From Dipteris shenzhenensis (Eukaryota), in NCBI GenBank assembly GCA_047967505.1, contig CM106538.1: a DNA stretch of 64,000 nt; one strand, given 5' to 3'. Of this stretch, positions 11,065-41,065 are shown piece after piece. The notes under the pieces are model-generated. The model made no database searches. It had not been told where the DNA came from and saw only the letters and a list, made by a program, of their open reading frames with translations. Every line of letters starts with the position of its first letter. Positions within the stretch are counted from its first letter, which is position 1. The position numbers and the translations under genes are program-made.

Positions 11065-11350
11065 ATAATAATGAGACGAAAGATTTCAATTTGTCAAGTA
11101 ATGTGAGATGAAAGATTTTGATTAGGTCACTAATGTGAGACTGAAAGATTTTGATTAGATCACTAATGTGAGACTGAAAGATTTCGATCAGTGAACTAAT
11201 GTGAGATGAAATCTCGATTAGACAACTAATGTGAGCTAAAAGACTTCGATTAGACAACTAACATGAGACTGAAGAATGAGAAGGTTGGGCTCAATGAACT
11301 CAAAGATTTCAATTACCGAACTAACATGAGAGTGAAGATTGAGAAGGTTA
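11065..11350. repeat. Minisatellite, ~30-33-bp unit ACTAATGTGAGACTGAAAGATTTYGATTAG, ~7 copies
   Basis: Direct inspection; repeated SHISxLIxIF in the antisense translation. Confidence 0.85.
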
Positions 11351-11893
11351 AGATCAACGAAATCTCTCCCTATTCAAGTGTAGTGTAGAGACAACTAAGA
11401 GCCGGATGTGCACACTTTTCGAGCAAAAACCTACGAGAAGAAAAGTCCGAGTGATAATTTTTGACACCAACCATGCTTGTATATTATTACAAGATGAATG
11501 GATTTGTAGGATGTGTGGATTCGTTATGGAAAACTAGTGCGGTGGTTGTTGGGATATACTAAAAACTAGCATGGGATTTACCGTTTGGAATTTACAAAAA
11601 CAATACTAAAAATAAGCAATCTCAAATACAAATTCCATTTTGTAGGACAAGTTGACATATTGTTTCCTTGCAATGAGACTACACACATTTTCTTAGTACT
11701 ATCTCAGTCGTCCTCATCCACTGCTCAAGACACCCAAGATGTGCTCATGCATGTCTAAATCCAATTTTAAGACACTCTCGCCCTTCTTTCATTATGGCAC
11801 AAGTTGCATCTGGAACTTAACAGCTCTTACTAGATGAGCAGTAAAAGTTTTAGGTGAGCGGACCCTGGCGACCGGCCACAGTTTAGGCGAGTG

Positions 11894-12287
11894 GATTGAC
11901 ATGATTACAAAAATGAAGTCATAGCTCATTCAATGGTCTACAACTTCCTAGTTCACTTCACATATCACAATTCCTCACACATCATCTGATTCTATGTTTA
12001 AAAATTGATATCTACTCTCTTTTTCCTAATGGAATGAAACAAACGGTGAAAAACACAAACCATAGAGATAAAATGAAACATATCTCTCTCTCTAGGTCTC
12101 TGATTAACATGATTCCAAAAACAAAGTCATAGCTCATTCAATAGTCTACAACTTCCTCGTTCACTTCATTACTCTATTCTTCACACATCATCTGATATCT
12201 ACTCTCAAAAATTGATATCTACTCTCTTTTTCCTAATGGATGTAACAAACAGTAAAAAACACAAACCATAGAGATAAAATGGGACAT
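11894..12287. repeat. ~190-bp tandem duplication (period ~207 bp)
   Basis: AAGTCATAGCTCATTCAAT...CACAAACCATAGAGATAAAATG occurs twice. Confidence 0.85.
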
Positions 12288-12400
12288 TTGTTCAAAGAAA
12301 TGGTCCACAAAATTTAAACAAATATAAGTTCAAATACATAAACATTTGTTCAAAGCCCTGGAGCACAAAATGTATATTGTCATCACAAAATAGGAAAATG

Positions 12401-13346
12401 TCATTCCCCTTTCTTGGCATCTGGATGCATATGCTCTAAGGGCTTCAATTAAATAGTCACCATGCCATCATCTTTCTCAAGAGAGACACAATGTCTACCT
12501 AGCTGTGCACATGCATGTGCCATCTTCCCCGTGCCTGAAAATGCATCCACAACCATGTCCCCCTCCTCTATGAATGTGTGCAAGTGAAACCTAGAAACAA
12601 GATCCTCAATTGTTAACAAACCAACCATACACGAAGACTAGAAAAATCACCTGCAAATTAAAATCACTTGCTCAATCCAAGTTGTCTCTCTGCACTACCT
12701 CGCACGAACTTGTGACCCTCTTGTGTGCCTTTGAAGGTGTGGATTTTTGTCTCCCTTATCCAGTTTGACTAGCGAATGCATATGTCATTGCCTCGTCGTC
12801 ATTGCCAAGGCTCTTCTCTACTAAGGCTTTATTGTAGTATGTGGGGATCTTGCATCTACGCTGTCATATAACCAAGACCTCCCCAAGACTAGCCAGGTCA
12901 TCTATAACTAGAAAACTTAAACAAGTCAAACTTTCGCAAATTTGTGCATAAACATATTTGAAACTGTACTACCATTTAAATGAGATTTCACGTACCATCT
13001 CCTTGGGATTCTCTTGCATGTAGCTGCAGTCAAGGTATACCATTAGCATGTGAAATCCATTATCCATTGCCCCCCACTGAACACAACACACATGTTCTAG
13101 CAAGCAAGTACTGATGAGCCACCCCCCATGATTGACTATATGGTTTGCAAATGTTGGAATAGCCTCCACAAGACCCATATTTAACTAGTTCCACTCCAGA
13201 ATCTCCTTTTTGGAGATGCGCCCAACAGAGATGATGTAGGAAATTCTGCCCACATCATGCTTGCAGCTGCCTTTGTTTCTTTCTCTTCAATTGTGATTGA
13301 TGGAGGGGTCAGCAACTTAAGAAAATTCCTTACTTTCACATGAGAC
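12401..13346 (-). pseudogene. Spliced beta-class DNA amino-methyltransferase (N6_N4_Mtase-like) pseudogene, copy 1
   Basis: The last exon (12590-12401) reads FHLHTFIEEGDMVVDAFSGTGKMAHACAQLGRHCVSLEKD, a SAM-binding motif I. A GT-AG intron at 12667-12591 joins VRGSAERQLGLSK in frame. The upstream exon has MMWAEFP and IVNHGGWLISTC. Internal stops and a frameshift are present. Confidence 0.72.
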
Positions 13347-13831
13347 CTGAAGAATAGAGACATTCACATCAATAATCCACATCAATAATCATGGTTACCG
13401 ACGGTGTCTCTTGGTGCCCTAAAGAAAACCGCACGGTGTAGATGTGGGACCATGCAGGCTAAATGACTTGGTATGGATAGATACCGCACAGTAGTTATGT
13501 CATGATACTGTGCGGTAAGAGTATAAACCACGCAGTATGGTCTCGATGGACAGTGGTGTAAAGAACCATGTTTTCTTTGTTTAGGGTGTTAGGCCCTGAT
13601 CTTTATCCGAAAAGTACGTATTTTATTTTAAAAAACATGCTTTTTAAATCCTTGCTCATGGTGTCAATATTAGAAGGAAATTACAATAGTGCAATTGAAG
13701 GCTTAGGGCCTTAAATAAGAGGATTGAAGATCCCTAAAATGTTAAGGAAGCACAAGGACCTTTAAAATTATTTAAGATTTAATATAGAATCTTTGATGAA
13801 GATAATTCTCTCTGTCTCTCTGTCTCTCTCT

Positions 13832-16800
13832 TGAGAGTCCTCTCAACGGAAGCAAGAACAGAAGAAGGAGAGAGAGAGATAGAGAGCCACACAAGTTTGG
13901 TGGGTGCAGAACCACCCTAATCATCTTTTTCATTCATTTATATGTGTGTTTGAGTATTGTACATAACCGGGGTTAAGGCACAGTGACCTTTAACCCCCAC
14001 AACCTCCCACTTAAAGGACAATGTGCCTTTAAGAGAGAACAACTAGTGAGCATACTATCCAATGCCCATCAATACACGACAATACTCAAACCGCTGACTA
14101 GGTAGACTCTTCATCAGCATATCTGCAGGGTTATCGTCTGTATGAACCTTGACAAGCTCTATGCGCTTGTCCTTAAGTACCTCCCTAATGAAATGGTACC
14201 TGACCTCAATGTGTTTGGTCTTTGCATGAAAGACCGGATTCTGTGCTAGCTGAATAGCACTCATGGCATCACTATGCAATGTCGGTACACCTGTATGAAT
14301 CCCCAAATCTCCCACTAGCCGATCAAGCCATATAGCCTCCTTGCAACCCTCTGTGGCTGCAACATACTTAGCCTCTGTGGTAGACAAAGCAACGCACTTC
14401 TGTGCACGAGACATCCACGACACTGCACCACCTGCAAAGGTGAACACATAACGAGAAGTGGATCTCCTACTATCCACATGCCCTGCATAGTTTGAATCTA
14501 TGTACCCAAGTACACGCATGTCTCCTTTACCAAAGCAGATGCACATCTCCTTGGTACCCTTCATGTACCTCATGATGCACTTAACTGCCTCCCAATGCCT
14601 CTTTCCTGGATTAGCCATATACCGGCTAACAACTCCCACTGCAAATGCAATGTCTGGTCTAGTAGCTATCATAGCATACATAAGACTCCCAACTGCTGAT
14701 GCATAAGGAACCTTGGCCATCATGGCCCTCTCCTCTTCTGATTTGGGACTATCTATATGACTCAGTTTCACATATGGAGGCAATGGAGTACTCACTGCCT
14801 TCCCCCCCTCCATATTGAAACGCTGCAATACTTTTGTAACATACTCTTTTTGTGAAAGCCAAAGGAGTTTCCTACTCCGATCACGCGTGATGCACATACC
14901 AAGAATATGACCTGCAAGTCCCAAATCCTTCATATCAAAGGCCTCATGCAACTTGGCCTTTAATGCATCTAGCTCATAAGTATTCTTGCTAGCCAATAGC
15001 ATATCATCCACATATAGCGCCAGGATTACCAGGCTATTATCCTTAGCCCTTTTAGTGTAGAGGCAGTGATCAATTTCACTCCTTCTAAAACCCTGGGACC
15101 GAATGAAAGCATCAAACTTCTGATACCATTCTCTAGGTGCTTGCTTAAGACCATAGAGACTCTTCTTCAGCTTGCAAATGAAATGCTCTTTGCCCTTTTC
15201 TTCAAAGCCTTCCGGCTGCACCATGTAAATTTCCTCATGCAAATCCCCATGCAAGAAAGCTGTCTTGACATCCATCTACATAAGCTCCATATCCTATGAT
15301 ACCACTAGTCCAAGCATGCATCTAAGTGTGGTCATCTTCACAACTGGAGAGAATATCTCATCAAAGTCCACACCCTTCTCTTGCTTGAACCCTTTAGCAA
15401 CCAAACGGGCCTTGTACCTAGGCACATCATCACCTGTGACCTTCATTTTGTAGACCCATTTACATGGCAATGCTTTCTTTCCATGTGGCAAAGAAACCAA
15501 GTCCCAAGTCTTATTCTTCATAAGTGAACTCATCTCTGATTGCATAGCATACTCCCACTTGCGTTTATCCTCACGCATCATAGCCTCTCTATAGCAAGAA
15601 GGCTCCCCGCAATCAGTAAGCATCACATAGTCTACCCCTGGAACAAACCTATCAGGCGGTCTAGACACTCTAGATGATCTTCTCAAGGGCATTTCAGCTT
15701 GCTGTCCCACTTGCATATCAGCCACATTTGGCTCATCATTTCCACCAATAGATGATCCATCATATACCCTTGATTGTATACCTGTGGGAGTACTTGGTGG
15801 TACCATTTCTTGCACATTTGGTGCATGGACAGCTTGCTGTCTATCAACATAGGCAGGTGGATTCACATCCTGGAAAGTGATTCTCCTCATTTCCACATCC
15901 CTCATGGGTGCCTTATGCATCTTCTTCTCATTGAAGACCACATCATGGCTGCGTATGATCTTCTTTGCTTCTGGATCCCACAGACGATAGCCCATCTCTC
16001 CACTTTCACCATAACCCAGAAAGATGCATTTCCTAGACTTAGGATCTAGCTTCTTTCGAAGCTCTTTTGGCACATGTGCATATGCCTCACACCCAAATAT
16101 ATGCAAATGAGAGTAAGAGGGCTTCTTGCCACTCCATGCCTCTTTAGGAATACCACCATCCAAACTCTTACTAGGTGATCTATTGATCACATGCACTGCA
16201 GTCTTCATTGCCTCAGCCCAAAAACCACTAGAAAGACTTGCATTGGAAAGCATGCATTGCAACCTTTATTGAATGGTATGGTTCATCTTTTCTGCAACTA
16301 GATTTTGCTCTGGAGTATGAGGGGATGTGAGCTCCCTCTTAATCCCACGTGTATCACAGAAATGCTGAAAGTCATGAGAGAGATACTCTCCACCATTGTC
16401 AGTCCGTAGGCATTTAAGCATTCTACTTGACTGATTCTCAACCAAGGCCAGCCATTTCTGAAATACCTGGAAACATCACTCTTCCGAGCTATAGTATAAT
16501 CCCACACTTTCCTAGTTGCATCATCAATGAATGTCACATAGTATTCAGCCCTGCCTAATGACCATGTAGGCATGGGACCATATACATCTGAATGCACCAA
16601 ATCAAGCATTTCAAACTCTTTCTTTCCCCTTCTTTTATGGGCTGATTTAGTCTGCTTCCCATAGAGACAATGCTCACAAAATTCAAAATCAGAGAAACTC
16701 AAATGCGGTACATAACCCAAACGGCATAAGAGTTTCATTCCATTCTGGCTCATGTGCCCCAACCTGCAATGCCACAAAGAAGTGCTTGGCTGCTCGGTTA

Positions 16801-19731
16801 TTGCAACAACATGATCAAATACCCCTGATACATGTAAGGGATACAAAGTCCCACACTTGGCACCCCTGGCCAAAAGCATAGAACCCTTCTAAATTTTCCA
16901 ACTTTGAAAGCCAAAAGTGGTGTGAAAACCAGCATCATCTAGCTGACCCATTGAAATAAGACTCTTGGTCAACTTAGGCACATGTCTCACATGTTTCAAA
17001 ACAAATGCAGACCCATTTGCAAAAGAAAACTTTATGTCACCTGCTCCCACTATGTCACATGGATAGTCATTTCCAAGATGCACACAACTTGTCTTTCCAC
17101 TATCATAAGTGGAGAACCATTCCCTATGGGGAGTAACATGGAATGAAGCACCAGAATCCAAAATCCAATCCTGGGAATATGCATCATCTGAAGTGGTAAG
17201 CAACTCTGCAGATAAACTAGACATGAAGAGAACATCATTGTCACTATCATGTGTGACTGCATTGATCTCCTCGATCTTCACTTTTCCTTTGTCCTCCCTT
17301 GGACTCTCTTCCTTTTGATTTGCACCCCAATTTGCATTCTTTTTTTTATCCTTTTGCTCTCTTTTCAGCTTGTAGCAATCCTTTTTCATATGGCCCTTCT
17401 TGCCACAATGGTAACACTCAATGTTCCATGCCCTGGATTTTCTACGAGACTTCCCTCTTTCTTGGGACTTCCCCCTGAACTGTGATCTGCCCCTTTGCAC
17501 ATTTAAGGCTACATCCTGCTTGTTGCCATCCATAGACTTCCGTCTAATCTCCTCGGCCAACAAGCTACCCACAACATCATCAAATTTCAGTACTCCACCA
17601 GGTGCAGAGTTACTAACAGCTGTACGGAAGGTATCCCATGAGGATGGCAATGAACATAAGAGAAATATTGCCTTAGTCTTCGCATCAAAATTCATTTTCT
17701 GAGCCTGAAGCTGGCTGAAAATAATATTGAATTCATTCAAGTGAGAAGCAATGGAGACCCCTTCCTTCATCTGCAGCTCAAACAACCTCTTCATGAGGTA
17801 AACTTTATTAGAGGCAGTTTCCTTCTCATAAGTGGCACACAGTTTCTTCCGCAAATCTTCCGTAGTCTGCTCATATATACTACTGTGAAATAAACTGACT
17901 CTGCAAGATGAAGTCTAATAGTAGACTTTGCTAATGCATCCAACTCATTCCAATCATCCTCAGACATATCCGCAGGCTTAGCTTCAATACCTACCAAGGG
18001 TTTAATCTGCTTCTTTTGAATAAGCACATCCCTTATTTGTTCTTTCCACAAAGAAAAGTTTGTCCCATCAAACTTTTTAATGCTGAAAAACTCCTTTTCA
18101 GACATGGAAGAGGATGCCATGATGCAAATAAAGCAAAATCCCAAATGCTAGTGCCTGCAAGAGAGAATCACAACAAATACCAAGTGCACCCAAATGTGTA
18201 TGCCACAATAGACTAAAATATCACAAAAGACTCAAAGCTCAAAGCATCAAAAGATGCATCTGACTCATGTGCATATACTATGCATCCATATGAGCAAATC
18301 TGGCCCAAAAGAAAATGCCAATAAGTGCCAAATGACTCAAGCATAAACACCATCCACTAGCATATACATCAATTATATCTCATCCAAGAGAGCATAGCAC
18401 TATCAGTGCATCACCAACAATGTGTCAAAGCTGTCCCTCAGCATAAAATAGCATCCATGTGCAAAGCGTCCATAAAAAATAGCATCCCACAAGGCAATTT
18501 GGGCCTATCAGCGCATCCAACAAGGACCGCAATGCATCCAAATGGCCTATAAATCATCCATTGCAACCCAATGCATACCACGAATGAGTGCACACTGCTC
18601 AAACTGCAACCAGAGTGATCTGCATAAGGTATGCTGAAGAAATCATAGTCCCACGGTAATGAGCGCTACTGAAAATAGAACCTGAGATGCCTCAAAACAT
18701 GGGCGCCATTGCATAATCGGACTCAGCAAGAAAATCTGCAAATATCTCTCTTCTACCAGAACTCCAAAATCCCAACCGATGAGTGAGAAATGGGAGTCAA
18801 CACTTATCCACTGCCATGTGGCATAAATCTAAGATTTCAAAACCTTAGAATGAAAAATGCATAACAGAGAGATGAAATCGAATACACAGAGATCTATAAC
18901 TCTGAAAATCCTCCACCGAATCGCGTAAGAACTGACAGGTAGGGGTTTTTGGGCATCCGGAACACAATGGGACAGACGGTTTTGGAAACCGTGGTCTCAA
19001 TCACTGGGTCCAACACACGGACTGAAAAACGTTTTTGGAAACAGAGCTATCTGTAAACTCCACCAGAGTGTGAATGATGAGCAACATAGAAGTTTTAGGA
19101 CCTCCTGAGTCCACTGGAACTGACAGATCTGCAAATGGTTGCTCCAAACTTGAGTTCCAACACCCGGGCAAAAAACGCAGGAACTGACACAGTGAGTCGG
19201 AAATCCAATGAAATGATCCCAGATTCAAGAATGAAGGTGTTTCCAAGCTCCTAAAGTGAAGTGGACACTAAAAGCAAGCAATAGTTGCCTCTACAAGTCA
19301 ATATGGAGTCTCTGTCATCGAACAGAACAGGAAAAAGCTCAAAAAACGACTTTTTCTTTGAAACCACTTAACAGGCTCTCAAAACCACTTCGCAAAGCCA
19401 AAGTGACTTTTCCAAAGGTTCCTCCAAGGTCTCTGCACACTCGGATGCAAGTAAAGTCACCCACAAAGCTTCCCACAAAGCTTCTCCTTCCTCCCACAGA
19501 GCTGCTGAGCTTCCAAGCATTCACGCATGCTCAGCTAGATCACCCGGGCTCTGATACCAGTTGAGAGTGCTCTCAACGGAAGTAAGAACGGAAGAAGGAG
19601 AGAGAGAGATAGAGAGCCACACAAGTTTGGTGGGTGCAGAACCACCCTAATCTTCTTTTTCATTCATTTATATGTGTGTTTGAGTATTGTACATAACCGG
19701 GGTTAAGGCACAGTGACCTTTAACCCCCACA
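13832..19731 (-). mobile_element. Full-length Ty1/copia LTR retrotransposon with disrupted gag-pol
   Basis: 170-bp LTRs at 19562-19731 and 13832-14001, with 4 mismatches by eye. PBS TGGTATCAGAGC at 19548-19559, PPT just inside the 3' LTR, TSD TCTCT in a CT microsatellite. Confidence 0.96.
14055..18144 (-). pseudogene. Copia gag-protease-integrase-RT-RNase H polyprotein, broken into 5 ORFs
   Basis: CYHCGKKGHMKKDC zinc knuckle, WILDSGAS, WHCRLGH...CEHC, LVHSDV, YVDDML, KTKHIEVRYHF. Confidence 0.93.
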
Positions 19732-21267
19732 TCTCTCTCTTTCTCTCTCTCTCTCTTGTCTTACCCCTTTCTTTCACTCTTGTTTTCTTGTTTCCTTCCC
19801 TTCCTCTCCCTTTTACAAATTCTAGTTGATTCTCTTACTCTACCAGATCTTCTTGCTTAAAATAATGAGAAAGCTTTTGTAGCCAATTCAAAGCATAATA
19901 TGTTATATCTTATTGCAACTACTTAAAGATTGAAATATAACAATCACAACTCATACATATTAATGTTACTACACAAGAGTTTTAAAGCAAATAACATATT
20001 CAACCATTTCATATCCAAGCTATAATGACACTAAAAGACAAATAAACAACTAAGTGTCAAAACCTAGATAATTACAATTAAGAATTTAAAGTACAACACC
20101 TAAAGTTGAATAAATAACTAAGTGTTGAAGATTAGACTATTATATTTTTTGAAGAATTACAACAACACCATAAGCTAGATAAATGACCATGTGTCAAAGT
20201 CTAAACATTCATTCTATGATGTACACAATGATACTAAAAGCCAAATGAATGAACAAGTGTTGAAGACTGGTTATTTCACAAACTATGTACCCACCACAAG
20301 ATGAATAAACAACCAAGTTTTGAATCCTATTACCCTTCTAAGATTGGTGAACAACACATGCAACTGAATGGTATGATCAAGTGTTGAACTAGTTTCAAAA
20401 TAAGAGGAAGGAGTCCTTATAGCAACATCAAAAGTCAAGTATTACGACCAAGTGTCAAAATGCAAACTTGCTTATCTAAGTACATCTACAATCGAGTGGT
20501 AAGAAATAGGGTAGAGCAATAAGCACCATATAAATGCATGGCCCAAAAGACAACTCAAATATTACATGACAAATCAAGAAATCAATGTATTGTGATGAGA
20601 CGAAAGGCCAAATACAACACTACGTCAATACTAAAAAGTCATATAATATAAAAAACAAAAGGACACATCACACAACATTGACATATTATTTTAAAATACA
20701 ACACTACATAAATCATTGTGCTAAAAGATTTATGCCTAGATTTGCTACATTGAAGATATGCCAAAGTATACAAGTGACACATCCAACTAGATAGCATAAA
20801 AAAAAATATGAGAAACCCGCATTCTAGAATGAATTTCAAGTGAAATGTTTAAAAAACATTTACTATAGAAACTATCCATAAAGAAGATATATACTATTTG
20901 CATCCAAGAATCTCAAATAAGCTAAAAACTTAAAGAGAACTCTACCTACTCCGAACACTCATACTTAACACCAGGTAGCTCCTATCAATAATTGCAAGAA
21001 CAACCATTTTGTTACTTCTATGACCATATGTTAAAACATTTATATATATATATATTCCTATAACATTATCTAATCTAAAGAATGAAATTCTATTTAACTA
21101 CCAATAGAAATGACATGTATATAATTTACTTATTAGACTACTCTTATATTCGCTATAGGAAATCATTAAAGAAGGAAATAAAATACAGGGAGTACAATCT
21201 AGTTTACAAAATCCATGTGACTATAATTTACTAATCGTGAAGAACACATGACTAAATTAGAAGTATA

Positions 21268-21293
21268 ATATATATATATATATATATATATAT
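21268..21293. repeat. (TA)n microsatellite
   Basis: About 12 TA units. Confidence 0.95.
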
Positions 21294-22969
21294 GTCTCAA
21301 CATCTAGTTATCTCACCTTATATAAAATACTATCTATATATAAAGAAAAATTAATAACTTAAACTATACGTATAGATAAGTATACTTATAAATAGCTACA
21401 AATAAAAATGACTAACTACATCTATTAAAAAGATCTACTATAAGCCAAACAATCGAAACAAAGGCAAGTAACAAGCACACCTACATCTTGACTCATACAA
21501 TCATCATCAAACATAAATTACACTATCCCAGTGACTTACCTATCGTATTCATCGTTGAGAGGTGAAGACAAGCAAGAACCTTCGATGACGACCACAACCA
21601 CCAGACGCGATCGAGCTCTTGCCAATCAGTATGAGCCACTTGATGATGAAACAAACTGACTACCAATCTTCTTGACTATGCCGTGCAGGCAAAAATCTAC
21701 CATTAAAAAAAATCTTGAGTAGCAAAAAATCTACAAAGAAAAGAGCTAACCCACAATTAAGCACATAAAAACATAGGGCCCAAAATACTACTACCATGAA
21801 CACAAACAGTACGAAGGAAATGACCCAAGATCATGGTCTAGGGACTCATGGAGTACAACAAACTAGACATAAAGCTCTAACTAACATCCACTAAAGATCC
21901 ATGATGTCTAGTTGACAACATGGAGAAGCACATTGCTAGATAAAAATCAAGAAAGAATGCCAGGGAATAATGGCTAACTCGTAGTGACACTCAAGAGGAA
22001 GACTCCAGCTACGAGACCAAAACTAGTCTACTCTGATAGAAATACGATGGTAGGGATAGCTTCATGATGCAGATGAACGGGCTTTTAGATGGTTACTTCC
22101 TAGCACCCACTCATTCATAGCCTCTCTTGATCAGCGGTCTTACTCTTACCATGACCAAGGAAATAAGGACAAACTGTGTAGCTCACCGAGCAATTCATCT
22201 TGGGTGGAACAAACTCAGTGGAGGAAGAGATTTAACCCAAGTGCTAAGCACTAATTGGCATGTAACACAATGCCATGAGAAAATCTTGAGCAAGGCACCA
22301 GAACCAGCAATAGGGAGATGAACAATTTTGATCAAAAGGCATCAGGATTGCATCATAATGTATTGATCTAGTTAGATGTATATGCCGATGGACATGTCTG
22401 ACAAGTATGCTTTGATGACAATAAATGGAGCCACAGAATGCACTGATGTTTGCTGAAGTCACAGTGATTGGTCATTCGATGAATATGTGGCATCACCCTA
22501 AGACACTCTCACATGAAGTTGGGGGTAATAAACTTCACGCACCTCTTCACTTCCTGCTGCTTTCGACTTGAGTGATAGAGATATTCATCACTGGGAAAGG
22601 GACATTAAAAAGAAGCTTTTATAGCAAGAGACCATACCATACTATCCTCCCTTATATGAGAATGAAGATGGTAACATCCCAAGTGATGTTGTACTCAAGC
22701 ATAGGGAGAAGGAAAGGATTAGTGGAGGCCATAATCTCAGTAAGCCGGTCTACACCAAAGAGAAGAGCAATACATTGTTGAAATAAGATCTTGTGTCTCA
22801 ACGTGACATGAACTGATATATATCGAGGAGTTTGAAGGAGCTAGTTGGGTCAGATGGGTAGGTTTCGGGGAAACATTGCACCTCCTTCATAGATACCTTT
22901 ACAATTAGCTCAAAACACTCTACAAATTGTCATTAGAAACAAAGGCATATAACTTTTAGTACTAGAGAC

Positions 22970-25900
22970 ATGATATCAAATATTCAAACACATATCAAGA
23001 TGTTCCTTGAAATGGGCATCACTTTGATATAAGTTTCGTAAGAAACAGAGAAGCGGTCAGAAAGATATGGGTAGTTTAGTGGGCAGGGGTAAAAACGGTC
23101 TCCATGATTAGACTTCATCAACGATCCAAGTCCCATAGAGATCACCTAGGAGGGAAGGAAGAGCTCCCTTTTTGACTTGGGAAATAGATAAACCATGTAT
23201 GCGCAATGAGCGGCCAAATAAACAACACTTTTGAGCACTTTGGAAGAGAAAACAATGGAAAAAGGGAAGAGACACTCAAGAGAGAGAACCTAAAGTGAAC
23301 TTCATTACCACCAATAGAGTGAGACTCCACTCCAATGCAACTCAAAATACTACAAACACAAGGAAGAAGAAGAGGTTTTCTATGTACAAGAGGGAGCAGA
23401 AGCTCCAAGACTACTCATAGAGAGAGAATGAACTAGAGAGAGATGGACTCAAGAGTCTACATAAGAGAATATCTACATGAGGGAGAGAAGGCTCATGGAA
23501 GAGGCTTGAGGAGACTAATGGTGAAAGAGATGATGAAAAAGGGAGAGGAGGGCTCCTTTTATAGAGATTTTTTCACCCCCCTTCACCCATTTACAATTGC
23601 CGCCTATAGATTCCTTTCGCCATCAATCACATAAGCCCATATGTCACCATCTATATCCTTTTTGGCTACTCTTGCCATATGTCCCATCAAAAGATGCTCA
23701 AGACTCTTAAAATATTGAGAAAGTCAAGAGTCTCCCCACATGGGGCCCATAGGGACCCTCTCTTTTCCATATGTCCACATCCTCCTTATTCCACATAGGA
23801 ATTCTAGAAGGATTCCTCTTGACTCCACACTCCTCCACATGCCTTCCACATGCTTGGCATGTGGCCTCTCTTATATTATTGGAACACATGGACATGAGCC
23901 CACCTCTTTATATGACTCACTCTTCGTATTTTCTAAAAACCCCATAATATCCCATACACAAATAACTCTCACCCCATACCAAGGTATTTATCATTCATAC
24001 ACATGGCATTTACAATGATCCATTCCACTCATCCTCTCAATCCCATACAATATCTTAGAAAATAGAAATAAGTGAGAGCCACTAGGCTATCACTTGATAC
24101 TCAAACTCTCTAGAATAAAACAATACCAATGCCAAACAAAAAATATCAATTTTTGGCATCACATCTTTCCCCCTAGCAGGTCCTCTCTAGTGACAGAGAG
24201 GGTCTGCTGACCCTCAAGGTGGTCAAGCATAGAAGAATTTAAAGCGATACTCATTGGTGCATCTAGGTATCACCATGCGATCAACATCCTCAAGCTGATA
24301 GGTTCCATTTGTGAACTTCTTTTTGACTCGATATGGTCCCTCCCATCGGCCGATAAACTTATTGTCCAACTGCTTGTCCAGACGGCTATCAAATCTCATG
24401 ACCAAAACTCAATCTGCAATATCTTTCTTCTTGTGTAATTTGGTGCCAAAACGGGCCTTGCGCCTTTTTTGAGAAGCTTCCAAGTTTTGTAAGGCCTATA
24501 ATTTGCATGCATCCAAGGCTTCTAGCTATACCAAGCATTGAGCATAGGCATTCTCCTCTCCTTCTTTTCTTACAACAGCAATGCGAAGACTATGTATCTC
24601 CAATTCAATGGGAAAAATGGCTTATATTCCATACACTAGTTGGAATGGTGTAAACCCAATATCTAGCTTGTGTGTGGTTTTGTAAGCCCATAAAACTTCT
24701 GCCAAGTGCCTATCCCAATGCCTTTTCTTGGTGTCTACAAGCTTTCCCATTGAATTGCACAACAATCCATTTGTTTTCTCTGCCAAGCCATTACATTGGG
24801 GATAGTATGGCGTGGACATGCTATGATTTATCTTTAGCTTATGCACCACATCTTTGATTAGTTCATTTCTAAAAGAGGTTCCTCCATCAGTGAGAATTTC
24901 CAAAGGACAACCAAAGCATGAACAAATTTGATCAAAGAGAAATTTTGCAACTATGCTGGCCTTACTTCTGACTGTGGCCTTGGCCTCTGCCCACCAAGTC
25001 GCATAATTTGTGGCCACCAATAAATAATGCTTGCCTTGAGATGAGTGAGGGAGTGGTCCCACAAAGTCCAACCCCCACCTCTCAAATGGTCCATATGCTA
25101 GAATAGGCTTCAAGGGCCCAGGAATCAACTGTCACCTTCTAAACCTTTAGCATACTTTACAACTTTGACACCATTCATATATATCCTTATGGAGGCATGG
25201 CCAAAAGTAACATGCATTAAGAATTTTCCTAGCTGTGCTCGCTAAAGCAAAATGACTTATAAAGAATGTCATTAACAACAGTATAGGGACAAGCCTTCCT
25301 TACCAATCTCTGCTTCTGTTGTGGAGTTAACCCTCGAGGAAACATGCCTTCTTCCACATATTGCTGAACATCTTGCAGTTCTGGCCATCTAGTGTCTACC
25401 AAAGAAACCACCCCCCGGTCTTGTACTATAATGGCTTGAGTAGCTAACTCATATGCCCTTTGATTTTATTTTATGCTTATATGAACAAACTTGCAAAAAT
25501 CATACTGATTACATAGTGCCATAGCCTTTTGATTAAGCTCCTTAAAATGAGGACTTCTTGTCTTGTAATGCCCTTGCATTTGCTTTATAATAAGCTAAGA
25601 ATCTCCTTTTACTTCCAATTCTTTAACTTAACTTTAAAGACAACCCTCCAAACCAAGAATCAAAGCATTATACTTAGTTGCATTGTTAGTTGTGATACTT
25701 TGAAGCTCTTATCCTCTTGCCCACACCTCTTGACCTTCAGAATTCATCAAGACTATCCCCCCAACTCCTTGATGGCGTGAAGGACTAAAAGCCCCATTAA
25801 AATACAAGACAAAAGCTATTTGTGGTGTCTCCCTTTCATCATTAATGTCCTCCTTATATTTCTTTTTTTTCTCTTAGATCCTGCCATCCTGTGAGAAAAT

Positions 25901-27640
25901 CTGCCATAGTGGACCTAGTGGTATTTTCAGTGACAAAAGAGAAGAGAACTCTTGAATCTCTAACAACCAATTTGCAAATATCCCCCCAAGATTAGGCTTG
26001 CAAACTAGATATGCTAATATAAACGGAGAGGTAAGGAAGAAAAATGGCCGAGGTAATAAATAGGAGCGAAACTTTCTGATTGAAAACACTAAAGAGAGGG
26101 CTTGCTGCTCCATTTCTTCATACCTTGTTTCTGCCTCTATAAGCCATTGGCTGGCATAATAGATGGGTTGCATTCTACCTACCTCTCCTTTTTGTAGCAA
26201 TAGAGCACCAACTGAATGCAAAGATACACTTGGATTTACATAAAAGTCTTGAGATCAAGCAGGGGGCTTCAATACTGGGCCCTTACTCATGGCCTCCTTA
26301 AGTTGTTGAAAAGACTCTTGTTGCTCCACACCCCATTGAAAAGAAACTCCTTTTTTTGTCAACAAGTTGAACTATCTCTATGAAATCATCACAAAAGCAT
26401 TGATAATACTTGCTTTTTCCTAGAATTCTATGAACACCAATGACACTCTCAAGACTTTTTAGCAATGCCATGATTGCTTGAACCTTGTCAGGATCCATTT
26501 GTAGACCTTCTTCAGACAATATGCCCCAACAAGACTACTTTTTTTTGAGCCAAATGACCTTGCTAGGATTTAGACACCCTTTTGCTTCATCAATCCTAGC
26601 TAAGGCCATCTTTAACTTCTCCATGTGATCTATGCGCCAAGAATAAATGAAAAAATCATTCAAAAACACCCTTATGAACTTTCCCAAGTAAGGCTCAAGG
26701 ACTTGACTCATGAACCTTTGAAAGATCATATGAGCCATAGTAGTGCCTTTTGCTTGTTTTTAGCTTTTGTAGAGACTATGGTTTTTTGGTTGAAAGCAGA
26801 GAACCTTTGCACTTGAGAAGATCATATGAGCCATATCAATGCCTTTTGCTTGTTTTTAGTTTGTTATGGAATTTTCAAGACATTTGTAAAGGAGATAACA
26901 ATTGTAGACTAGCATTGAAGCATATTAGTCCATCCAAGAAGGATCACAATGCATCCAAATGGCCTATAAATCATCCACTGCAACCCAATGCACACCATGA
27001 ATGAGCACACATAGCTCAAACTGCAACTAGAGTGATCTACATAAGGTATGCTTAAGAAATCATGGTCCCACGACAATGATCACTACTAAAAATAGAACCT
27101 GAGATGCCTCAAAACATGGCTTCCGAATGTAAATTTGAAAGAACCCAGAATAGCCATCACATATAGAATACATCTCATGCCTTGCTACTTGGTCTAGTAT
27201 TTCATCTTGGAATGGCAAAGGAAAGTGATCCCTTTTAGTGCATGCATTCAAAGGATGAAAGTCTACACAAACCCGCCACTTATTTCCTTTCTTTGGTGTG
27301 ACAACTATAGGAGATATCCATTCTGAATCATCAATAGGAAAGATGAATCCTGCCTCAAGTAGTTGTGTTACCTCTTTCTTTAGTGCCTCAAGTTGGATCA
27401 CCCCCAATTGCCTTAAGCGTTGCACAACTGGCTTGCTTTCTGCTTCAACTCAATCTTGTGCTCCACAAGAGAGACCGGTCGAACCTATGAATAGCTTGTT
27501 GCAAAGAGATATGGAAAATCATCTAACATATCCAAGTACTGGAGCTTCTCACTACTTGCTAATAGAGAATCACCAAGAAGATCTTCATTGCGTTGGCATT
27601 GTTTAGTGTGCTCCACATCCTCCACATGAGCAACCCCTTC
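22970..27640 (-). mobile_element. Ty3/gypsy Tat-lineage remnant (RT-RH-aRH-INT) with probable 3' LTR at ~22970-24163
   Basis: RT: WISPIVVTPKK, WRVCVDF, DGYSGF. RH at ~25874-26221. An additional RNase H at ~25530-25820 reads LYFNGAF...TNNATKYNALILGL...VKGDS. Integrase: ERWGLDFVGPL, PYYPQCNG, WEGPY. PPT AGGGGGAAAGA precedes TGTGATGCC at 24163. The left LTR boundary is approximate. Confidence 0.85.
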
Positions 27641-29435
27641 AACACAAATGCTCTAATTTATGTACTGAATGAAATCTCTCCCTATTTAAGTGCAGTGCGA
27701 ACACAAATAAGAGCCCATTATGAAATTTAGCCCCAAAACTCTGTACATCGATCCACCAACTGCCGATCCACCTACTACGAATATATGCCATACCCAAAAA
27801 ACTTTGGAATGCTTTTGTTCTATCTGAAAACAATGTTGGATGACCTCCTCGCACATCCCAAGTGATGTACTCAAGCATAGGGAGAAGGAAAGGATCAGTG
27901 GAGGCCATAATCTCAGCAAGCCGGTCTGCGCCAAAGAGAAGAGTGATACATTGTTGAAAGAAGATCTTGCAACTCAATATGACATGAATTGATATATATC
28001 AAGGAGTTTGAAGGGGATGATTGGGTCGGATGGGTAGGTTCCAGGGAAACATTGCACCTCCTTCATAAATACAAGCTGGAGGCATGTGTATCGGTATGCT
28101 TTGATGGCGCACATTTTTTTGTGAGATGTATTTGTGTTTCATAGTGGAGAGACAATCCTGGTGGGCTCAAACTTTTGGATGTGCCAGTTTCATGTCTGCA
28201 AAAGTGGCAAACTGGGATATGAGCCATTTGTGGGGCAAGTCCTAGGATTGGGCCTTGATAAATGATCTGGATGCATCAATGTATGAGGAGTTCTAGTTGG
28301 ATCAAAAGTGGCCAGAGGACGTGTAAAAGAAGTGCTCACTATTCTTGGATTACCCTGAAGGGGAGCACCCACGAGAGGAGAAAGAAATGTACATGACGTA
28401 CAACAAACTACAGGGGCCCAAAGAACCAAAGAAGCTTGCAATGACGGTATGTACAAGCTCAAGTGTCCCCAAAATATTTATCTTCTAGGTTATTTTATGT
28501 ACTTACAAAGGACTCTATGCTACTGGAAAGTGAAGAAATCAAGGTCAGGGCTCCTGCATCTACTAGAGTGGGCAACAAAGCGGCAATTGAAAGAATGAGG
28601 GGGCAAAAAAAATATCGGGAGGCCAGATAAACCCGATAGACTTGGACAATCCTGCACCTAAAGGGATGAGACAAGATTGTGACAAAAATTGAGTTGGATT
28701 AAGAGTCGCATGGACGTTGTTTTTTATTTTTTAGAGGGCCTCAAATAATTGGCAATGTATTAGCTTCAGCAAAAATAGAGCCACTGGCTGCACAACTTGG
28801 AAGCACCCAAATAGGAGCTGCAGGGGTAGAAGCTCAATGTCGAGATCAAGGTGAGGAGGAGCTTTGTGTGACAGAATTCCTAGACATAGCCAAGTAGTAA
28901 TGAATTACCGACACAAAGTAGTCAAGTGGGACTGTTACCAATTGGCCCTGAATACATAGTGTAGGTGGGTGTATACAACTGCGTCCACACATCCTACCCA
29001 AACAGGCAAGTAGCATGCTCCTTTGTTTTTTAATTATTATCCTAAACAACATTCTAAAACATAATTTTTGTTAGCTTCTGTAGCCATAGTTGACGTGGCC
29101 ACAATTGCAAACATACAAGCATCAGGTGGACATAAAGAGAATGAGGAGGACCTACCAAGAGAGCATGAACAATCCACGTGTAAGTAGGGTCAGAAGCAAC
29201 AGATCCATGAAAATCAATAATTCGTTGTTGAGGCACTTGTAATAATGAGTTTCTTGAACATGGCCAGGGCGAGGAGGTCTAAGAGAGGCATCTTGATGTT
29301 GCATGTGAGATGTCTATGCACATGGAGACATCCACCAAGTACATTCCACCAAAATGCCAGGTTGTTATATGCAATCCATTCCAGGTAGGGAGTTCTCTAT
29401 GGAATGAGTGGAATTATGAGAACTTCAACTAGTTA

Positions 29436-32686: not shown

Positions 32687-33744
32687 CTACATTAGTGCAA
32701 CCCCTTGGCTCCCTATTGAGGACTTCCAAGTAGCATATCTCCTTGTCTTCTTGACATGTTGAACCGCTTTTGTGAGACTTGAGACCTCTACCTTATTGCG
32801 CTTGAGAGTCCTGGCCTCTAGACATCTATAAACCCAATCGAACATTTCGTGTAGTGCATTGCTTTGCGCGATACCACCCCCATGCCTTGTATTCTTGAAG
32901 CATGCTACCTTTGCTCTGTAGTGTGATTTCTCCATTCCTTGAGTATTCCAAATGGATAGAGGGCCCCATTGCTCCATAAACAATGGTGCATGCGCGTAAA
33001 GAATATGCTGTAAAGAAAAACATTGTATTCAAAGCATAAACTGACTCGAGTTTAAAGCACAAAATTTCAACCTAAGGAGGATTACCATGTAATGTGTAAT
33101 ATGTGACTCCCCCCATGCTTCTACCATCAATGATATGAATTCTCCCAATACTGTCTTGAATCTCTCATAATAAAGCTCATCTGTTTGACCTTGTCTAAGG
33201 AACTTTATAAATGCATCAAGCTTTGTCCATAGTTTTGCTCTCAAAGTAGCAATTCGCGGATGTGAAGCTTGATTTGTGGTGCACTCACACAAATCTTTCC
33301 AGTACTCCCAACCTAGGGTACTTTGAGCCATTGTATGTTTTTCTTTATCAGCATTATGGTTGGACAAGGAACTCCTTGCCTTTCCTCCCATGGACACTTT
33401 ATCAGGAAGATTTTGTGTCTTTCGTGATTGTTTCTTGTCCTGCTTAAGCTTCACAGTGCCTCTGTGAAGTCCCATTAGTGAGAGTAGTTCAACTTTTGCA
33501 ATGCATTGTGCAAATACTTGCTATGGCCTCAAATTCCAAGCATAATTTAGATGGAGATAGAGTAACTTATCAAGTATACGCAGTTCAGCATGCAAAGTAC
33601 ACACGTGTACCCGCTCTAATGGTATTGGTAGAATGGGGTCCCACTTAGGATCCTTTTTGTGACAATCAGGGGCTGCACTTTGGTTGCAAGAAAGGATGCC
33701 ATCTTCCCACTATAGGCTTCCCTTTTGCATCTTCTGAGAGTGGG
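32687..33744 (-). pseudogene. RAG1/Transib-like DDE transposase, 3' part
   Basis: HVCTLHAELRILDKLL and KVSMGGKARSSL. A GT-AG intron at 33085-33008 joins ITHYM|HILYAHAPLFMEQWGPLSIWNTQGMEKSH. Confidence 0.82.
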
Positions 33745-35239
33745 TGTTGAGAGTTCACGCTCAACATCATGTGATCATGTGTGCATAGCACCATCACGTG
33801 ATCATATGTGCATAGCACTAACCTTATAGAGTGCTATAAAGGAAAGGGTTAGCTTCCCTAATCCTAACCCTAAAAGGGTTTGTATATATTCTATTTTTTC
33901 AACTAATTCTAGTGTACAGTTAGTCATTTGTGGTGTGCTCTCTAGCTGTGCCCTCTCTCCTCATCTCCACTCTTCTCCTCTCCCCTCTTCATATTTTGTC
34001 ATGGTATCAGAGCTCCCTTGTCTTCCGTTGAGACATTGCGATTCTTGAGAGTGTGAGAGAGTGATTGAGAGGTTTCTATCTTTCATTCCGTTGATGAAAG
34101 ATTTTCGTTCATGTGAGAGGAATTTCCGTCCATTCATTTTGTGAGAGTTTCATTGAGAGATTCATTCTCTCTATTCCGTTCATTCTTCCGTGAGAGTGAG
34201 TAGCTCTTCTTGTGAGAGATTTGTGAGTTTGTTCTTCTACTCTACCTTCCGAGAGAGAGAGAGAGATTTGATTCTTCTCCTGTAGGGAGAGAAAGAGATA
34301 GCTTCCTTCCATGTTGAGAGTTTTTTGAGTGAAAGGTTTGTATTAAAAGAGAAGAAGGGAAAGCCGAGACTTCTCCAAGGAGCCCTTGAGCACGGGGACT
34401 GTCTAAGGTAGCAAACATGCAACACAACACTTCCAACAAAGACTTCGAGTGTTCCAGAGAACCTACAGCTCAGGCTTCTACGATCGAGTCGAGGCAAGCC
34501 TATCTCCTTGAAAGACTTCTTTGTGATGTCTCCATAGACTCAGCAATCAACGCGAGCCGCCAGCCCATCTAAAGCCTTCAAACAGTCATAACATCGAAGG
34601 TGAAGGAGATGGGGAGGATGACGAAGATGACCAGGATCCATCGAAACTTGACCAGGTAGTCGACGTAGGTTGTCTTGCGCTTGGGGCGGAGAGGCTAGCG
34701 AAGCTCGTCCGACATGGTTGCGACTCAACTTGTTTTTCGGAAAAAACTTCGACGGGTTTCCCTCGCTCCGCACCTCAGACCTCAGTTTTGCGACTAGTTT
34801 CGACCTCAAACCGACGGAAGCTTCGACCGAAACCTCAGATCTAAACTAACAGCTGCAAGTCCAACTGAGCTCCTTTCAACACCATCTACTGCGAGCTCCT
34901 TCTCGGACTCCTACCTCCCAGCGGCCGTCGACCCAGCTCAACAACAAACTCAACGCAACGACCGCCGACAACAAGCTCTACACAAGCTACGCCTTCAACC
35001 TCCAGCCACGGACTTCAGACGGGCTCCCGGCTCCTGCCAGTCCACCGACGGCTCCATCGCCAGCGCCACAGCCCTACGAGCTCCTTGGCCTGCTCCAGCA
35101 AAAAGCGTGCCTCCCCCAGACATCGGCTCCACGAAACAACGTCGCAACGAATCTCATCGCAAGGCGCCATCTCCATCGCATAATCCCGTCATCGTCGTCG
35201 TCGACCATCGACCTCCAGAGTCTCCTTCTCTGAGAGAGA

Positions 35240-35595
35240 ACCTGCCACGTGGCAGATAAGGCCACGTGGCACTCTTCAAACCACACCCACCTTGGGTTCA
35301 GATTAACCCAGGTGCAGTTAGGAAAGGATAGGGTTGATCCACGTGGCATCTTATCTTGCCACGTCAGCAGACTCCAGCATCTGCCACGTCACCATCTTAT
35401 CATCTGCCACGTCATCAGCCAATCCTATCTGCCACGTCAGCACCGACTGCCACGTCACCTACCACGTCATCAGTGACACGTCATCACTGCCACGTCATCA
35501 CTGCCACGTCATCTGTGCCACGTCATCTGGCCACGTCATCTGTGCCACGTCATCAGTGCCACGTCATCAGTGACACCTCAGCACTGCCACCTCAG
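35240..35595. promoter_or_regulatory. Array of ~16 G-box/ACGT motifs (CCACGTGG, TGCCACGTCA) in the copia 5' leader
   Basis: Counted by eye; regulatory function is inferred only. Confidence 0.55.
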
Positions 35596-40720: not shown

Positions 40721-41065
40721 TGGAATGTAATGCTCAGTCCTTCTTCGATTCCCCAGAATCATCATCTTGAGGGAAGGCCTACTTCATGATGTTGATCTTG
40801 AGGGAAGGTGTTGAGAGTTCACGCTCAACATCATGTGATCATGTGTGCATAGCACCATCACGTGATCATATGTGCATAGCACTAACCTTATAGAGTGCTA
40901 TAAAGGAAAGGGTTAGCTTCCCTAATCCTAACCCTAAAAGGGTTTGTATATATTCTATTTTTTCAACTAATTCTAGTGTACAGTTAGTCATTTGTGGTGT
41001 GCTCTCTAGCTGTGCCCTCTCTCCTCATCTCCACTCTTCTCCTCTCCCCTCTTCATATTTTGTCA

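Follow-up and report, generated by a model that had tools for sequence, protein, structure and literature searches.

We analysed a 64,000-nt stretch of DNA from Dipteris shenzhenensis (referred to as the window in the rest of the text), which carries on its minus strand the remains of a gene related to DNA amino-methyltransferases. The recognisable parts of this gene, pieces A to D, and the neighbouring elements are listed in the table. The frame at 12637-12449 encodes ...EEGDMVVDAFSGTGKMAHACAQLGRHCVSLEKD..., the peptide in which the first-pass annotation had recognised a DNA-methylase-like C-terminus. That peptide is real: in a Pfam scan the last exon (piece D) matched PF01555 (N6_N4_Mtase) with 34.6 bits (E 2.5e-8), above the family cut-off of 26.7 bits, and its frame aligned to positions 173-217 of the 221 positions of the profile, which form the C-terminal AdoMet-binding end. 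AdoMet-binding motif I reads DAFSGTG (codons 12547-12527) and is followed by R-H-C-V-S-L-E, with the acidic residue after motif I in place (D-A-F-S-G-T-G ... S-L-E). A profile built in this analysis from fern relatives (the family profile) matched the last exon with an E-value of 2.8e-14 among 60 minus-strand ORF pieces from 12300-13830, and the residues V, D, F, G, R, H, C, E and D were invariant in all eight aligned eukaryote-like sequences. Two candidate acceptors precede piece D: AG 12606-12605, in frame with the donor at 12705, and AG 12592-12591, which is homologous and out of frame.

Table. Features of the methyltransferase-like locus and its upstream neighbourhood (positions in the window).
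Feature	Positions	Strand	Basis
Piece A, first recognisable exon-like piece	13184..13346	-	translation; family profile; hhalign
Frame change inside continuous sequence	13178..13186	-	three-frame translation; homology resumes in other frame
Piece B	12996..13181	-	tblastn with fern P0030; family profile
Intron-like gap GT...AG, 88 nt	12908..12995	-	sequence; fern model alignment
Piece C	12697..12907	-	translation; by-eye comparison with fern alignment
Piece D, last exon	12452..12604	-	Pfam PF01555, family profile, protein search
Premature TAA (12451-12449) and trailing frame	12401..12451	-	tblastn across stop; profile to position 315; tail alignment
Short palindromic, MITE-like stretch	13417..13586	.	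inverted repeats I1, I4, I7
Ty1/copia LTR retrotransposon	13831..19731	-	self-BLAST; gag-pol ORFs; 5' LTR sequence

Piece A begins directly after an AG, its own frame ends at TAA 13183-13181, and it carries the motif IV-like MMWAEFPT, in which EFPT (codons 13246-13235) takes the place of motif IV, as had been proposed for WAEFPT. By itself, the motif IV piece was not significant against the family profile (E 3.2, 60 ORF pieces). Piece B reads ...VNHGGWLISTCLLEH...AMDNGFHML..., which corresponds to the strand and helix that follow motif IV (motif V/VI-like), and a GT comes directly after it. It was recovered by tblastn with the fern sequence P0030 (35% identity over 43 residues, E 0.018); the stretch 13184-12972 matched the family profile at the expected positions 119-167 with an E-value of 0.04 among the 60 ORF pieces, and when the entire window was searched as raw translation in six frames, piece B reached only E 0.61. 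The intron-like gap next to it sits about where the fern models P0044 and P0046 run past ...E-P into V-S-Y-L, an extension that looks like a read-through GTAAGT donor. We infer that this intron position is conserved with the ferns, one position probably being common to the window and the Adiantum and Diphasiastrum models described below. Piece C weakly resembles, by eye, the ...YN[KR]A...DD... and E-K-S-T-Q-F stretches of the family; it contains an in-frame TGA (12866-12864) and TAA (12758-12756), shifts frame afterwards, and is left unaligned by the family profile.

GT or AG dinucleotides lie at the homology breaks (AG 13348-13347, GT 12995-12994 and AG 12909-12908, then GT 12705-12704 or 12698-12697 and AG 12606-12605 or 12592-12591), bearing out the description of the gene as intron-containing. 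The more specific claim, that canonical introns join the upstream exons, held for the collinear order and for the dinucleotides at the breaks but not for the junctions as a whole, as not every piece joins in frame. When pieces A to C were joined with X at the breaks, they scored 4.9 bits against the family profile (E 5.2e-4), a score reached by one of 500 within-piece shuffles. Profile positions 91-167 were aligned across pieces A and B, and the window then matches positions 257-315, in collinear order. These results bear on a reading that accepts the last exon alone, as an isolated fragment of a methylase-like gene taken up, for example, by a mobile element, and takes the upstream exons for chance look-alikes. 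Piece D is the only piece that is individually significant, which together with the unaligned piece C, the junctions that do not join in frame and the further database relatives that likewise appear just as last-exon ORFs speaks for an isolated fragment. Nevertheless, the order, strand and profile positions of pieces A and B are as expected, the joined score was rarely matched by shuffling, piece B alone reached E-values of 0.018-0.04, and the intron-like gap falls near the inferred fern intron. We therefore give the isolated fragment a small chance and prefer to see the locus as what is left of a whole intron-containing gene.

The window copy is dead, with a frameshift, two stops inside the frame and a further, premature one that can all be read in the sequence, and 5' exons are missing, in agreement with its annotation as a pseudogene. 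The change between pieces A and B, from the frame of 13399 to that of 13400 at about 13183-13181, is a disabling lesion and no intron. Past the premature TAA, the frame continues for 15 codons (LKPLEHMHPDAKKGE) up to TGA 12403-12401. In relatives the sequence goes on past this stop (...[IL]-x-P-L...) and has a long proline-rich tail; in the window this conserved tail is absent, removed by the premature stop. The limits 12401..13346 given in the first-pass annotation are exact, 13346 being the first base after the AG and 12401 the final base of the TGA closing the post-stop frame.

The MITE-like stretch separates piece A from the copia LTR, in a region where one would look for 5' exons or a promoter; profile searches found no family homology in it. 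About 470 bp lie between piece A and the copia element upstream, which inserted into a GA-rich tract and has 171-bp LTRs that are 97.7% identical (self-BLAST). Tblastn with the fern models over 19732-24500, upstream of this insertion, gave nothing convincing, and a six-frame profile search of the whole 64-kb window returned neither a second copy nor a 5' part of the family. The suggestion that the gene is borne by a transposable element found no backing, as the 64-kb window showed neither terminal repeats nor a transposase nor a further copy of the gene; a search for inverted repeats that might mark the ends of an element around the gene gave two weak pairs that were not convincing. We also considered a location inside the neighbouring gypsy fragment and rejected it, as the gene lies outside the bounding repeat of that element, probably the 223-bp direct repeat at 22674-22896 and 27853-28072 (88.8% identical by self-comparison).

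Pfam, feature and fold searches agree with the proposal that the gene is a relative of the beta-class N6/N4 DNA amino-methyltransferases. An ESM Atlas feature search placed PF01555 in 27 of the 30 nearest clusters. The permuted order of this class is present, with the motif IV-like region N-terminal and AdoMet motif I C-terminal, the window and the family being collinear with the bacterial enzymes. Aligned by hhalign with nine bacterial-type beta-class enzymes, the family gave a probability of 98.4 over the C-terminal 61 columns; the N-terminal half gave an E-value of 0.0019 over 97 columns but a probability of only 14%, and the alignment sets N-F-[SP]-T of the family on the bacterial D-P-P-Y. 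Sequence searches of the PDB were weak both with the last exon (best E 0.087, a Thermus enzyme) and with the family profile (best E 0.12). The fold was examined on the fern relative P0031, not on the window protein: its AlphaFold model (core pLDDT ~80-88, mean 55), which reads its own motif IV exon in a shifted frame and is biased toward a methyltransferase fold because the input alignment held 12 bacterial-type methyltransferases, matched in Foldseek beta-class DNA amino-methyltransferases at every PDB entry listed to rank 35 (E down to 2.8e-10, target TM 0.45-0.68), among them M1.HpyAVI, CcrM, TTHA0409, M.MboIIA, rotifer N4CMT, M.RsrI and M.BceJIV.

A generic FxGxG could also belong to a relative of the RNA or small-molecule methyltransferases (TRM11/UPF0020, TRM5 or rRNA adenine dimethylase), and the runner-up Pfam families of the last exon, TRM5/TYW2 (18.5 bits, E 0.002) and RrnaAD (14.3 bits, E 0.023), as well as one UPF0020 chain in the PDB search (E 1.6), point that way. 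However, both runners-up fall under their own cut-offs and PF01555 alone exceeds its own, the motif order is permuted, and the best fold matches are without exception DNA amino-methyltransferases, which makes this origin very unlikely; best matches to RNA or small-molecule enzymes, named in the first-pass annotation as a result that would speak against a DNA methyltransferase, were not seen. Like the bacterial and phage beta-class enzymes (for example M1.HpyAVI, CcrM, TTHA0409, M.MboIIA, M.RsrI and M.PvuII), the gene has motif IV first and motif I last, D-x-F-x-G-x-G with the following acidic residue and, judging from the fern relative, the same fold. Unlike them, it lies in eukaryotic nuclear DNA, has introns, an altered motif IV and a replaced H-P-x-x-K-P, and its relatives bear a proline-rich tail; the window copy is moreover broken.

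Among 1.84 billion proteins, the last exon had no close relative; a search of this set returned 24 matches at E<=1e-3, and a search for longer proteins with the last exon alone gave none at E<=0.01. What did emerge is a eukaryotic family characterised by R-H-C-[VI]-S-x-E, with 17 mosaic models from Adiantum nelumboides (for example, MCO5591272.1, or P0012), one from A. capillus-veneris (KAI5082603.1, or P0033) and one from Diphasiastrum complanatum (KAJ7542955.1, or P0022), plus further contigs. The gene thus belongs, as had been supposed, to a eukaryotic family, with relatives in Adiantum and Diphasiastrum. PF01555 exceeded its cut-off in 12 of the 16 search matches that were scanned, including the eukaryote-like P0001, P0002, P0005, P0006, P0008 and P0012, and stayed under it in P0022 (21.4 bits); in five fern models it was the only family over the cut-off (27.2-34.8 bits). 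The Adiantum and Diphasiastrum models share with the window R-H-C-[VI]-S-x-E, a GG...DNGF segment and a non-canonical motif IV. They differ from it in sequence, with 44-57% identity in the last exon and less upstream, and the fern models carry additional acidic regions at the N-terminus and a tail at the C-terminus, neither of which is found in the window. These relatives are automatic gene models, unstudied and in many cases fused to unrelated genes. Each of the 17 A. nelumboides models is a mosaic or a chimera, and no complete intact member was seen. Last-exon ORFs of 176-206 residues are open in four sequences (P0002, P0025, P0026 and P0062), whose proline-rich tails share S-P-x-x-S-T-x-S-S-W; since these ORFs with a common tail remain open, some members of the family may be under constraint. 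In full-text literature searches, no paper describing genes of the PF01555 type from ferns or lycophytes was found, a broad search giving just general papers on these plants; homologues may be treated in the Marchantia paper in its 2025 Cell version.

It is exceedingly improbable that the locus is a bacterial contaminant or stems from a very recent insertion of bacterial DNA in the assembly. The nearest characterised relatives are indeed bacterial or phage enzymes, yet the locus lies between plant LTR retrotransposons and is broken by intron-like gaps, and its nearest relatives overall are nuclear gene models of ferns and a lycophyte, with 44-57% identity to the last exon versus 29-50% for the bacterial-type matches that were aligned.

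The motif IV signature (D/N/S)PP(Y/F/W) is absent from the window, which has EFPT, and from the five fern models that are readable in frame, which have KFST, NFST, DFST, NFPT and DLPT, i.e. [NDK][FL][PS]T in five out of five. The H-P-x-x-K/F-P stretch before motif I is likewise absent, the fern family having E-K-S-T-Q-F and the window E-G-H-K-F at best; of nine bacterial-type sequences, seven have H-P-[TA]-x-[KY]-P and two have variants (H-K-Q-Q-A-P and H-K-T-Q-L-H). The first-pass annotation had called the family a 4mC/6mA writer with the caveat that it may be inactive. Because none of the members examined has a canonical motif IV, the label of writer is unsupported, and the caveat stands for the window and for all five fern models. 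Judging from these motifs, catalysis would have been lost, and intact members would at best be AdoMet-binding, DNA-methylase-shaped proteins devoid of canonical transfer chemistry.

Eukaryotic genes derived from PF01555 are documented in the accounts of rotifer N4CMT and Marchantia DN4MT1, both described there as active 4mC writers with clear biology (PMC8885841; bioRxiv 10.1101/2021.02.12.428880). N4CMT of Adineta vaga (PDB 8S9M/N/O), which its authors describe as a 4mC writer of bacterial origin in bdelloid rotifers, resembles the present family in being eukaryotic, intron-bearing and of PF01555 origin, and differs from it in being active and having a chromodomain according to that description (PMC8885841), whereas the window family has neither a chromodomain nor the canonical catalytic motif. 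No special kinship to N4CMT was seen: its PDB chains matched the last exon with E-values of 0.1-0.11, which does not surpass the bacterial matches (0.087 for the Thermus enzyme). In the P0031 Foldseek search it occupied ranks 22-27. Pfam found no chromodomain in the pieces of the window gene or the fern models. The sperm 4mC methyltransferases DN4MT1a/b of Marchantia polymorpha are set apart by their described TSPPY, which the window family lacks.

An active intron-containing 4mC/6mA methyltransferase gene comparable to these two is highly unlikely at this locus. PF01555 homology, the beta-class fold of a relative and intact motifs I and II are what such a gene should have, but the frameshift, the in-frame TGA and TAA, the premature stop, the missing 5' exons, the EFPT at motif IV and the failure to find a chromodomain or other partner domain all argue against it. 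METTL14 and DNMT3L are catalytically silent methyltransferase-like partners. They belong to different families and might offer a functional analogy, in that the methyltransferase fold is kept and the catalytic loop is degenerate; we know of no partner enzyme for the fern family.

We consider it likely that the locus holds a decayed copy, without function, of a plant gene with introns that comes from a repeated family and derives from a bacterial or phage beta-class PF01555 methyltransferase. Such a family would have arisen from a permuted N6/N4 DNA amino-methyltransferase. It keeps the AdoMet-binding half at the C-terminus, with D-x-F-x-G-x-G followed by R-H-C-[VI]-S-x-E, and has exchanged the (D/N/S)PP(Y/F/W) loop for [NDKE]-[FL]-[PS]-T and H-P-x-x-K-P for E-K-S-T-Q-F. 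The window copy has no protein function, the MITE-like stretch and the copia element occupying the expected promoter site. Copies appear to have spread as DNA rather than via spliced RNA; the many mosaic or chimeric fern models indicate only that the family is repeated, and no mechanism follows from them.

A bolder interpretation, which we hold tentatively and regard as rather doubtful, is that ferns, lycophytes and the source plant harbour a third independent eukaryotic lineage of beta-class amino-methyltransferase genes of bacterial or phage type, which gained introns and a proline-rich tail, multiplied as DNA and changed DPPY into NFPT. Intact members might then either function on DNA or chromatin as 'pseudo-methylases' that bind AdoMet or be enzymes whose catalytic loop is non-canonical, and the window would hold a fossil. 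A repeated vascular-plant family of PF01555 origin, its AdoMet-binding half intact and its catalytic loop rewritten, would be a new example of a foreign DNA-modifying enzyme taken up and altered. Such a family would also be a candidate for testing where 4mC/6mA signals are reported in fern genomes, and the window locus, a dead copy, has its value as a pointer to it.

Bacterial ParB-methylase fusions exist, and a V-W-D-G-N-H-R stretch in the N-terminal region of P0028 and P0012 was considered as a ParB-like domain; this candidate was rejected, as the region had no Pfam match at E<=10. An ESM Atlas feature search with the same N-terminus returned instead, at the level of a lead, eukaryotic clusters together with fungal DUF3723 at scores of 0.93-0.94; no paper joining DUF3723 and ParB was found in the literature.

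The peptide FIEEGDMVVDAFSGTGKMAHACAQLGRHCVSLEKDDGMVTI, quoted in the first-pass annotation, is indeed present in the minus-strand frame 12637..12449, which contains piece D, the last exon. This frame matched Pfam family PF01555 (N6_N4_Mtase) at 34.6 bits (E 2.5e-8; curated cut-off, 26.7 bits) over the last 45 profile positions (173-217 of 221), and it retains motif I, the AdoMet-binding motif that is C-terminal in beta-class enzymes, with the subsequent acidic residue. TRM5/TYW2 (18.5 bits) and RrnaAD (14.3 bits) both fell below their own cut-offs, and Pfam gave no methyltransferase match in the other four ORF pieces. Comparison of piece D with PDB sequences was weak and pointed in the same direction, Thermus TTHA0409 (E 0.087) ranking ahead of rotifer N4CMT, CcrM, M.BceJIV, DpnA-type enzymes and M.MboIIA. 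Piece D is cut short by a premature stop where relatives continue ...[IL]-x-P-L..., and the window resembles them for 10-15 more codons past it. The relatives end in a proline-rich tail with S-P-x-x-S-T-x-S-S-W, which is conserved between Adiantum and four sequences whose last-exon ORFs are open for 176-206 residues (P0002, P0025, P0026 and P0062) and is absent from the window copy.

The limits first assigned to the gene, 12401..13346, proved exact: 13346 lies directly after an AG, and 12401 is the end of the TGA closing the frame beyond the first stop. Upstream of piece D, family likeness can be followed through pieces A and B and, by eye, into piece C. Piece A, whose fern counterpart reads I-R-R-F-L-G-S-L-T ... 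L-C-I-C-N-F-P-T ... V-P-S-W-N-T, terminates at TAA 13183-13181. Since homology continues in piece B with no gap between the two, the switch of frame is a frameshift. Piece B aligned with the Adiantum nelumboides gene model P0030 (tblastn, 35% identity over 43 residues, E 0.018) and with positions 119-167 of the family profile (E 0.04 among 60 ORF pieces). The intron-like gap that follows falls approximately where, in two fern models (P0044 and P0046), ...E-P is followed by V-S-Y-L, apparently a GTAAGT that was read through; most other models spanning this junction pass directly to (T)-Q-T-L-L. Piece C carries TGA 12866-12864 and TAA 12758-12756, after which a change of frame is required. At the second gap, the downstream candidate acceptor is homologous to a relative's acceptor and out of frame with both candidate donors, while the upstream acceptor and a donor at 12705 make an in-frame join. 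When joined with X at the breaks, pieces A-C scored 4.9 bits against the family profile (E 5.2e-4), a score reached by 1 of 500 within-piece shuffles, with 151 of the 500 below reporting level. In a raw translation of the entire 64 kb in six frames, the profile matched piece D (E 4e-13) and otherwise only piece B (E 0.61), and it detected no second copy or 5' part of the family.

Features of the pseudogene and its surroundings
Feature	Position	Strand	Remarks
Shorter-period tandem array	11072-11349		downstream of pseudogene
48-bp fragment of 223-bp repeat family	11356-11403		opposite side of pseudogene from the repeat pair
Tandem repeat	11894-12281		two units of ~208 bp, 88.5% identity; just downstream of pseudogene
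Piece D stop	12451-12449	minus	TAA
Second intron-like gap	between pieces C and D	minus	candidate acceptors AG 12592-12591, AG 12606-12605
Piece C	12907 to ~12697	minus	likeness by eye only (Y-N-K-A ... D-D; E-G-H-K-F)
First intron-like gap	12995-12908	minus	88 nt; GT 12995-12994 to AG 12909-12908
Piece B	13181-12996	minus	different frame, directly adjoining piece A
Piece A	13346-13184	minus	V-R-N-F-L-K-L-L-T ... M-M-W-A-E-F-P-T ... R-R-F-W-S-G
Palindromic MITE-like stretch	13417-13586		170 bp; upstream of piece A, between pseudogene and copia LTR
Ty1/copia element	13831-19731	minus	171-bp LTRs 97.7% identical; in GA-rich tract
Direct repeat	22674-22896 / 27853-28072		223 bp, 88.8% identical; ORFs for gypsy RT, RNase H and integrase in between

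When 1.84 billion representative proteins were searched exhaustively with HMMER, the piece D exon had 24 matches at E<=1e-3, the top one 51% identical over 47 residues, and none at E<=1e-10. In the eukaryote-looking subset, motif I is followed by a shared R-H-C-[VI]-S-x-E, and an alignment of eight such sequences has nine invariant columns. The named relatives from this first search were hypothetical proteins of the fern A. nelumboides and the lycophyte Diphasiastrum complanatum. After two more searches, the family comprised 17 A. nelumboides gene models (P0012, P0027-P0032, P0034 and P0043-P0051), one member each from A. capillus-veneris (P0033) and Diphasiastrum (P0022), and the ENA and Logan contig members P0001, P0002, P0005, P0006, P0008, P0025 and P0026. 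The fern gene models are mosaics that differ in the parts they omit, and several are joined to unrelated genes, such as gypsy RNase H and integrase (P0045), a zinc knuckle (P0012) or an RNA polymerase subunit domain (P0050; PF02150, precomputed Pfam). P0049 contains a stretch that is presumably a DRM-type cytosine methyltransferase. These mosaics are the automatic annotation of dispersed, partly decayed repeats. Residues 1-130 of the A. nelumboides models P0028 and P0012 gave no Pfam match; they hold a V-W-D-G-N-H-R stretch near the start, which we take to recall ParB/sulfiredoxin-type motifs, and an ESM Atlas feature search with this region returned, as a lead only, eukaryotic clusters and fungal DUF3723.

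In five fern models, PF01555 was the sole Pfam family over its cut-off, the alignment of P0030 spanning profile positions 29-217; 27 of 30 ESM Atlas matches to its residues 130-345 were PF01555 clusters (0.95-0.96). Alignment by hhalign of the cleaned family with nine bacterial-type enzymes reached a probability of 98.4 over the last 61 columns. The N-terminal half alone gave E 0.0019 but a probability of only 14% (97 columns); in this alignment, the family's N-F-[SP]-T coincided exactly with D-P-P-Y, and its A-G-G-V-V-I-A-L strand matched the 'G-G-x-l' strand of the bacterial enzymes. An AlphaFold2 model of the fern protein P0031, for which the input alignment included 12 bacterial-type sequences and the motif IV exon was read in a shifted frame, was poor overall (mean pLDDT 55, pTM 0.48) with a confident core (~66-88 for residues 220-310, dipping near 273-278, and ~67-88 for 355-410). 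With this model, Foldseek found 69 PDB matches at E<=1e-3; among the matches listed, ranks 1-35 were all beta-class DNA amino-methyltransferases, and MT-A70-type enzymes appeared from rank 37, interspersed with two more beta-class or Mod enzymes: M.PvuII at rank 38 and, at rank 41, a Mod methyltransferase specific for adenine. The initial reading of the locus as an intron-containing beta-class DNA amino-methyltransferase pseudogene of a eukaryotic family is supported.

That this family writes 4mC or 6mA, as was also proposed, found no support. The catalytic motif IV, (D/N/S)PP(Y/F/W), is replaced by EFPT in the window and is non-canonical in all five in-frame fern models (KFST in P0044, NFST in P0046, DFST in P0048, NFPT in P0051 and DLPT in P0032). 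Two further fern models, P0029 and P0031, read ...C-[ND]-Y-A-F-A-I-F-P-Q-T-L-D-Q... at this position, which would correspond, codon by codon, to the +1 frame of V-Q-L-C-I-C-N-F-P-T-N-T-R-P-D; judging from the peptides, these models therefore probably span a frameshift. Ahead of motif I, the family has E-K-S-T-Q-F in place of H-P-x-x-K-P, which is canonical in 7 of 9 bacterial-type rows. With motif I and its acidic residue kept and both other motifs replaced, it is the AdoMet-binding half that looks preserved, not the catalytic loop. Given what has been established for enzymes of this class, such a loop would be expected to abolish methyl transfer.

Two eukaryotic 4mC writers of bacterial origin are described as active: rotifer N4CMT, which carries a chromodomain (PMC8885841), and Marchantia DN4MT1, which has TSPPY (bioRxiv 10.1101/2021.02.12.428880). 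The fern and lycophyte family shares with both its origin and a eukaryotic gene structure but, unlike them, lacks the catalytic motif and, unlike N4CMT, has no chromodomain; the PDB comparison of piece D detected no closer kinship to N4CMT than to bacterial enzymes. For these reasons, we class the family as PF01555-derived but not with the 4mC-writer group. Our full-text literature search, which covered PF01555 and N6_N4_Mtase in eukaryotes, transposons, ferns, lycophytes and plants, brought up no account of a family like this one. The locus as such is inert; the family to which it belongs represents a rare kind in a modestly novel form.

The locus is the fossil of a family member that carried introns. 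Intron traces persist in the window gaps, in the fern read-through pieces and in the contig member P0025, where a pyrimidine-tract-like C-L-F-L-F-C precedes R-W; because copies retain introns, they would have spread in the form of DNA and not by way of spliced RNA. The vehicle may have been a DNA transposon, another element that captured the gene, or segmental duplication, and the donor may have been a bacterium, phage or giant virus. The suggestion that the family is TE-borne found no support: an inverted-repeat search gave no convincing terminal pair flanking the pseudogene, and the profile search of the window gave no other copy.

The DNA of the window is plant-like, repeat-rich and nuclear (G+C ~40%), with Ty1/copia and Ty3/gypsy gag-pol ORFs and, at ~59000-62600 on the plus strand, an ORF series that we take to resemble plant lipoxygenase exons. 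Inside the MITE-like stretch, whose termini are CCCTAAAGAAA / TTTGTTTAGGG, lies a perfect hairpin of 12 nt. In the neighbouring copia element, gag-pol is broken into five ORFs and a TGGTATCAGAGC stretch, presumably a tRNA-Met-type primer binding site, adjoins the 5' LTR; A+T-rich sequence with no family homology lies beyond the element. The 223-bp repeat pair probably bounds a gypsy fragment at ~22674-28072, which places the pseudogene outside that fragment. A second copia element (33743-41069, plus strand) looks like a young insertion: its 263-bp LTRs share 99.6% identity, and its gag-pol is almost unbroken (a 1183-aa ORF at 36326-39877, followed by 280 aa up to 40720).
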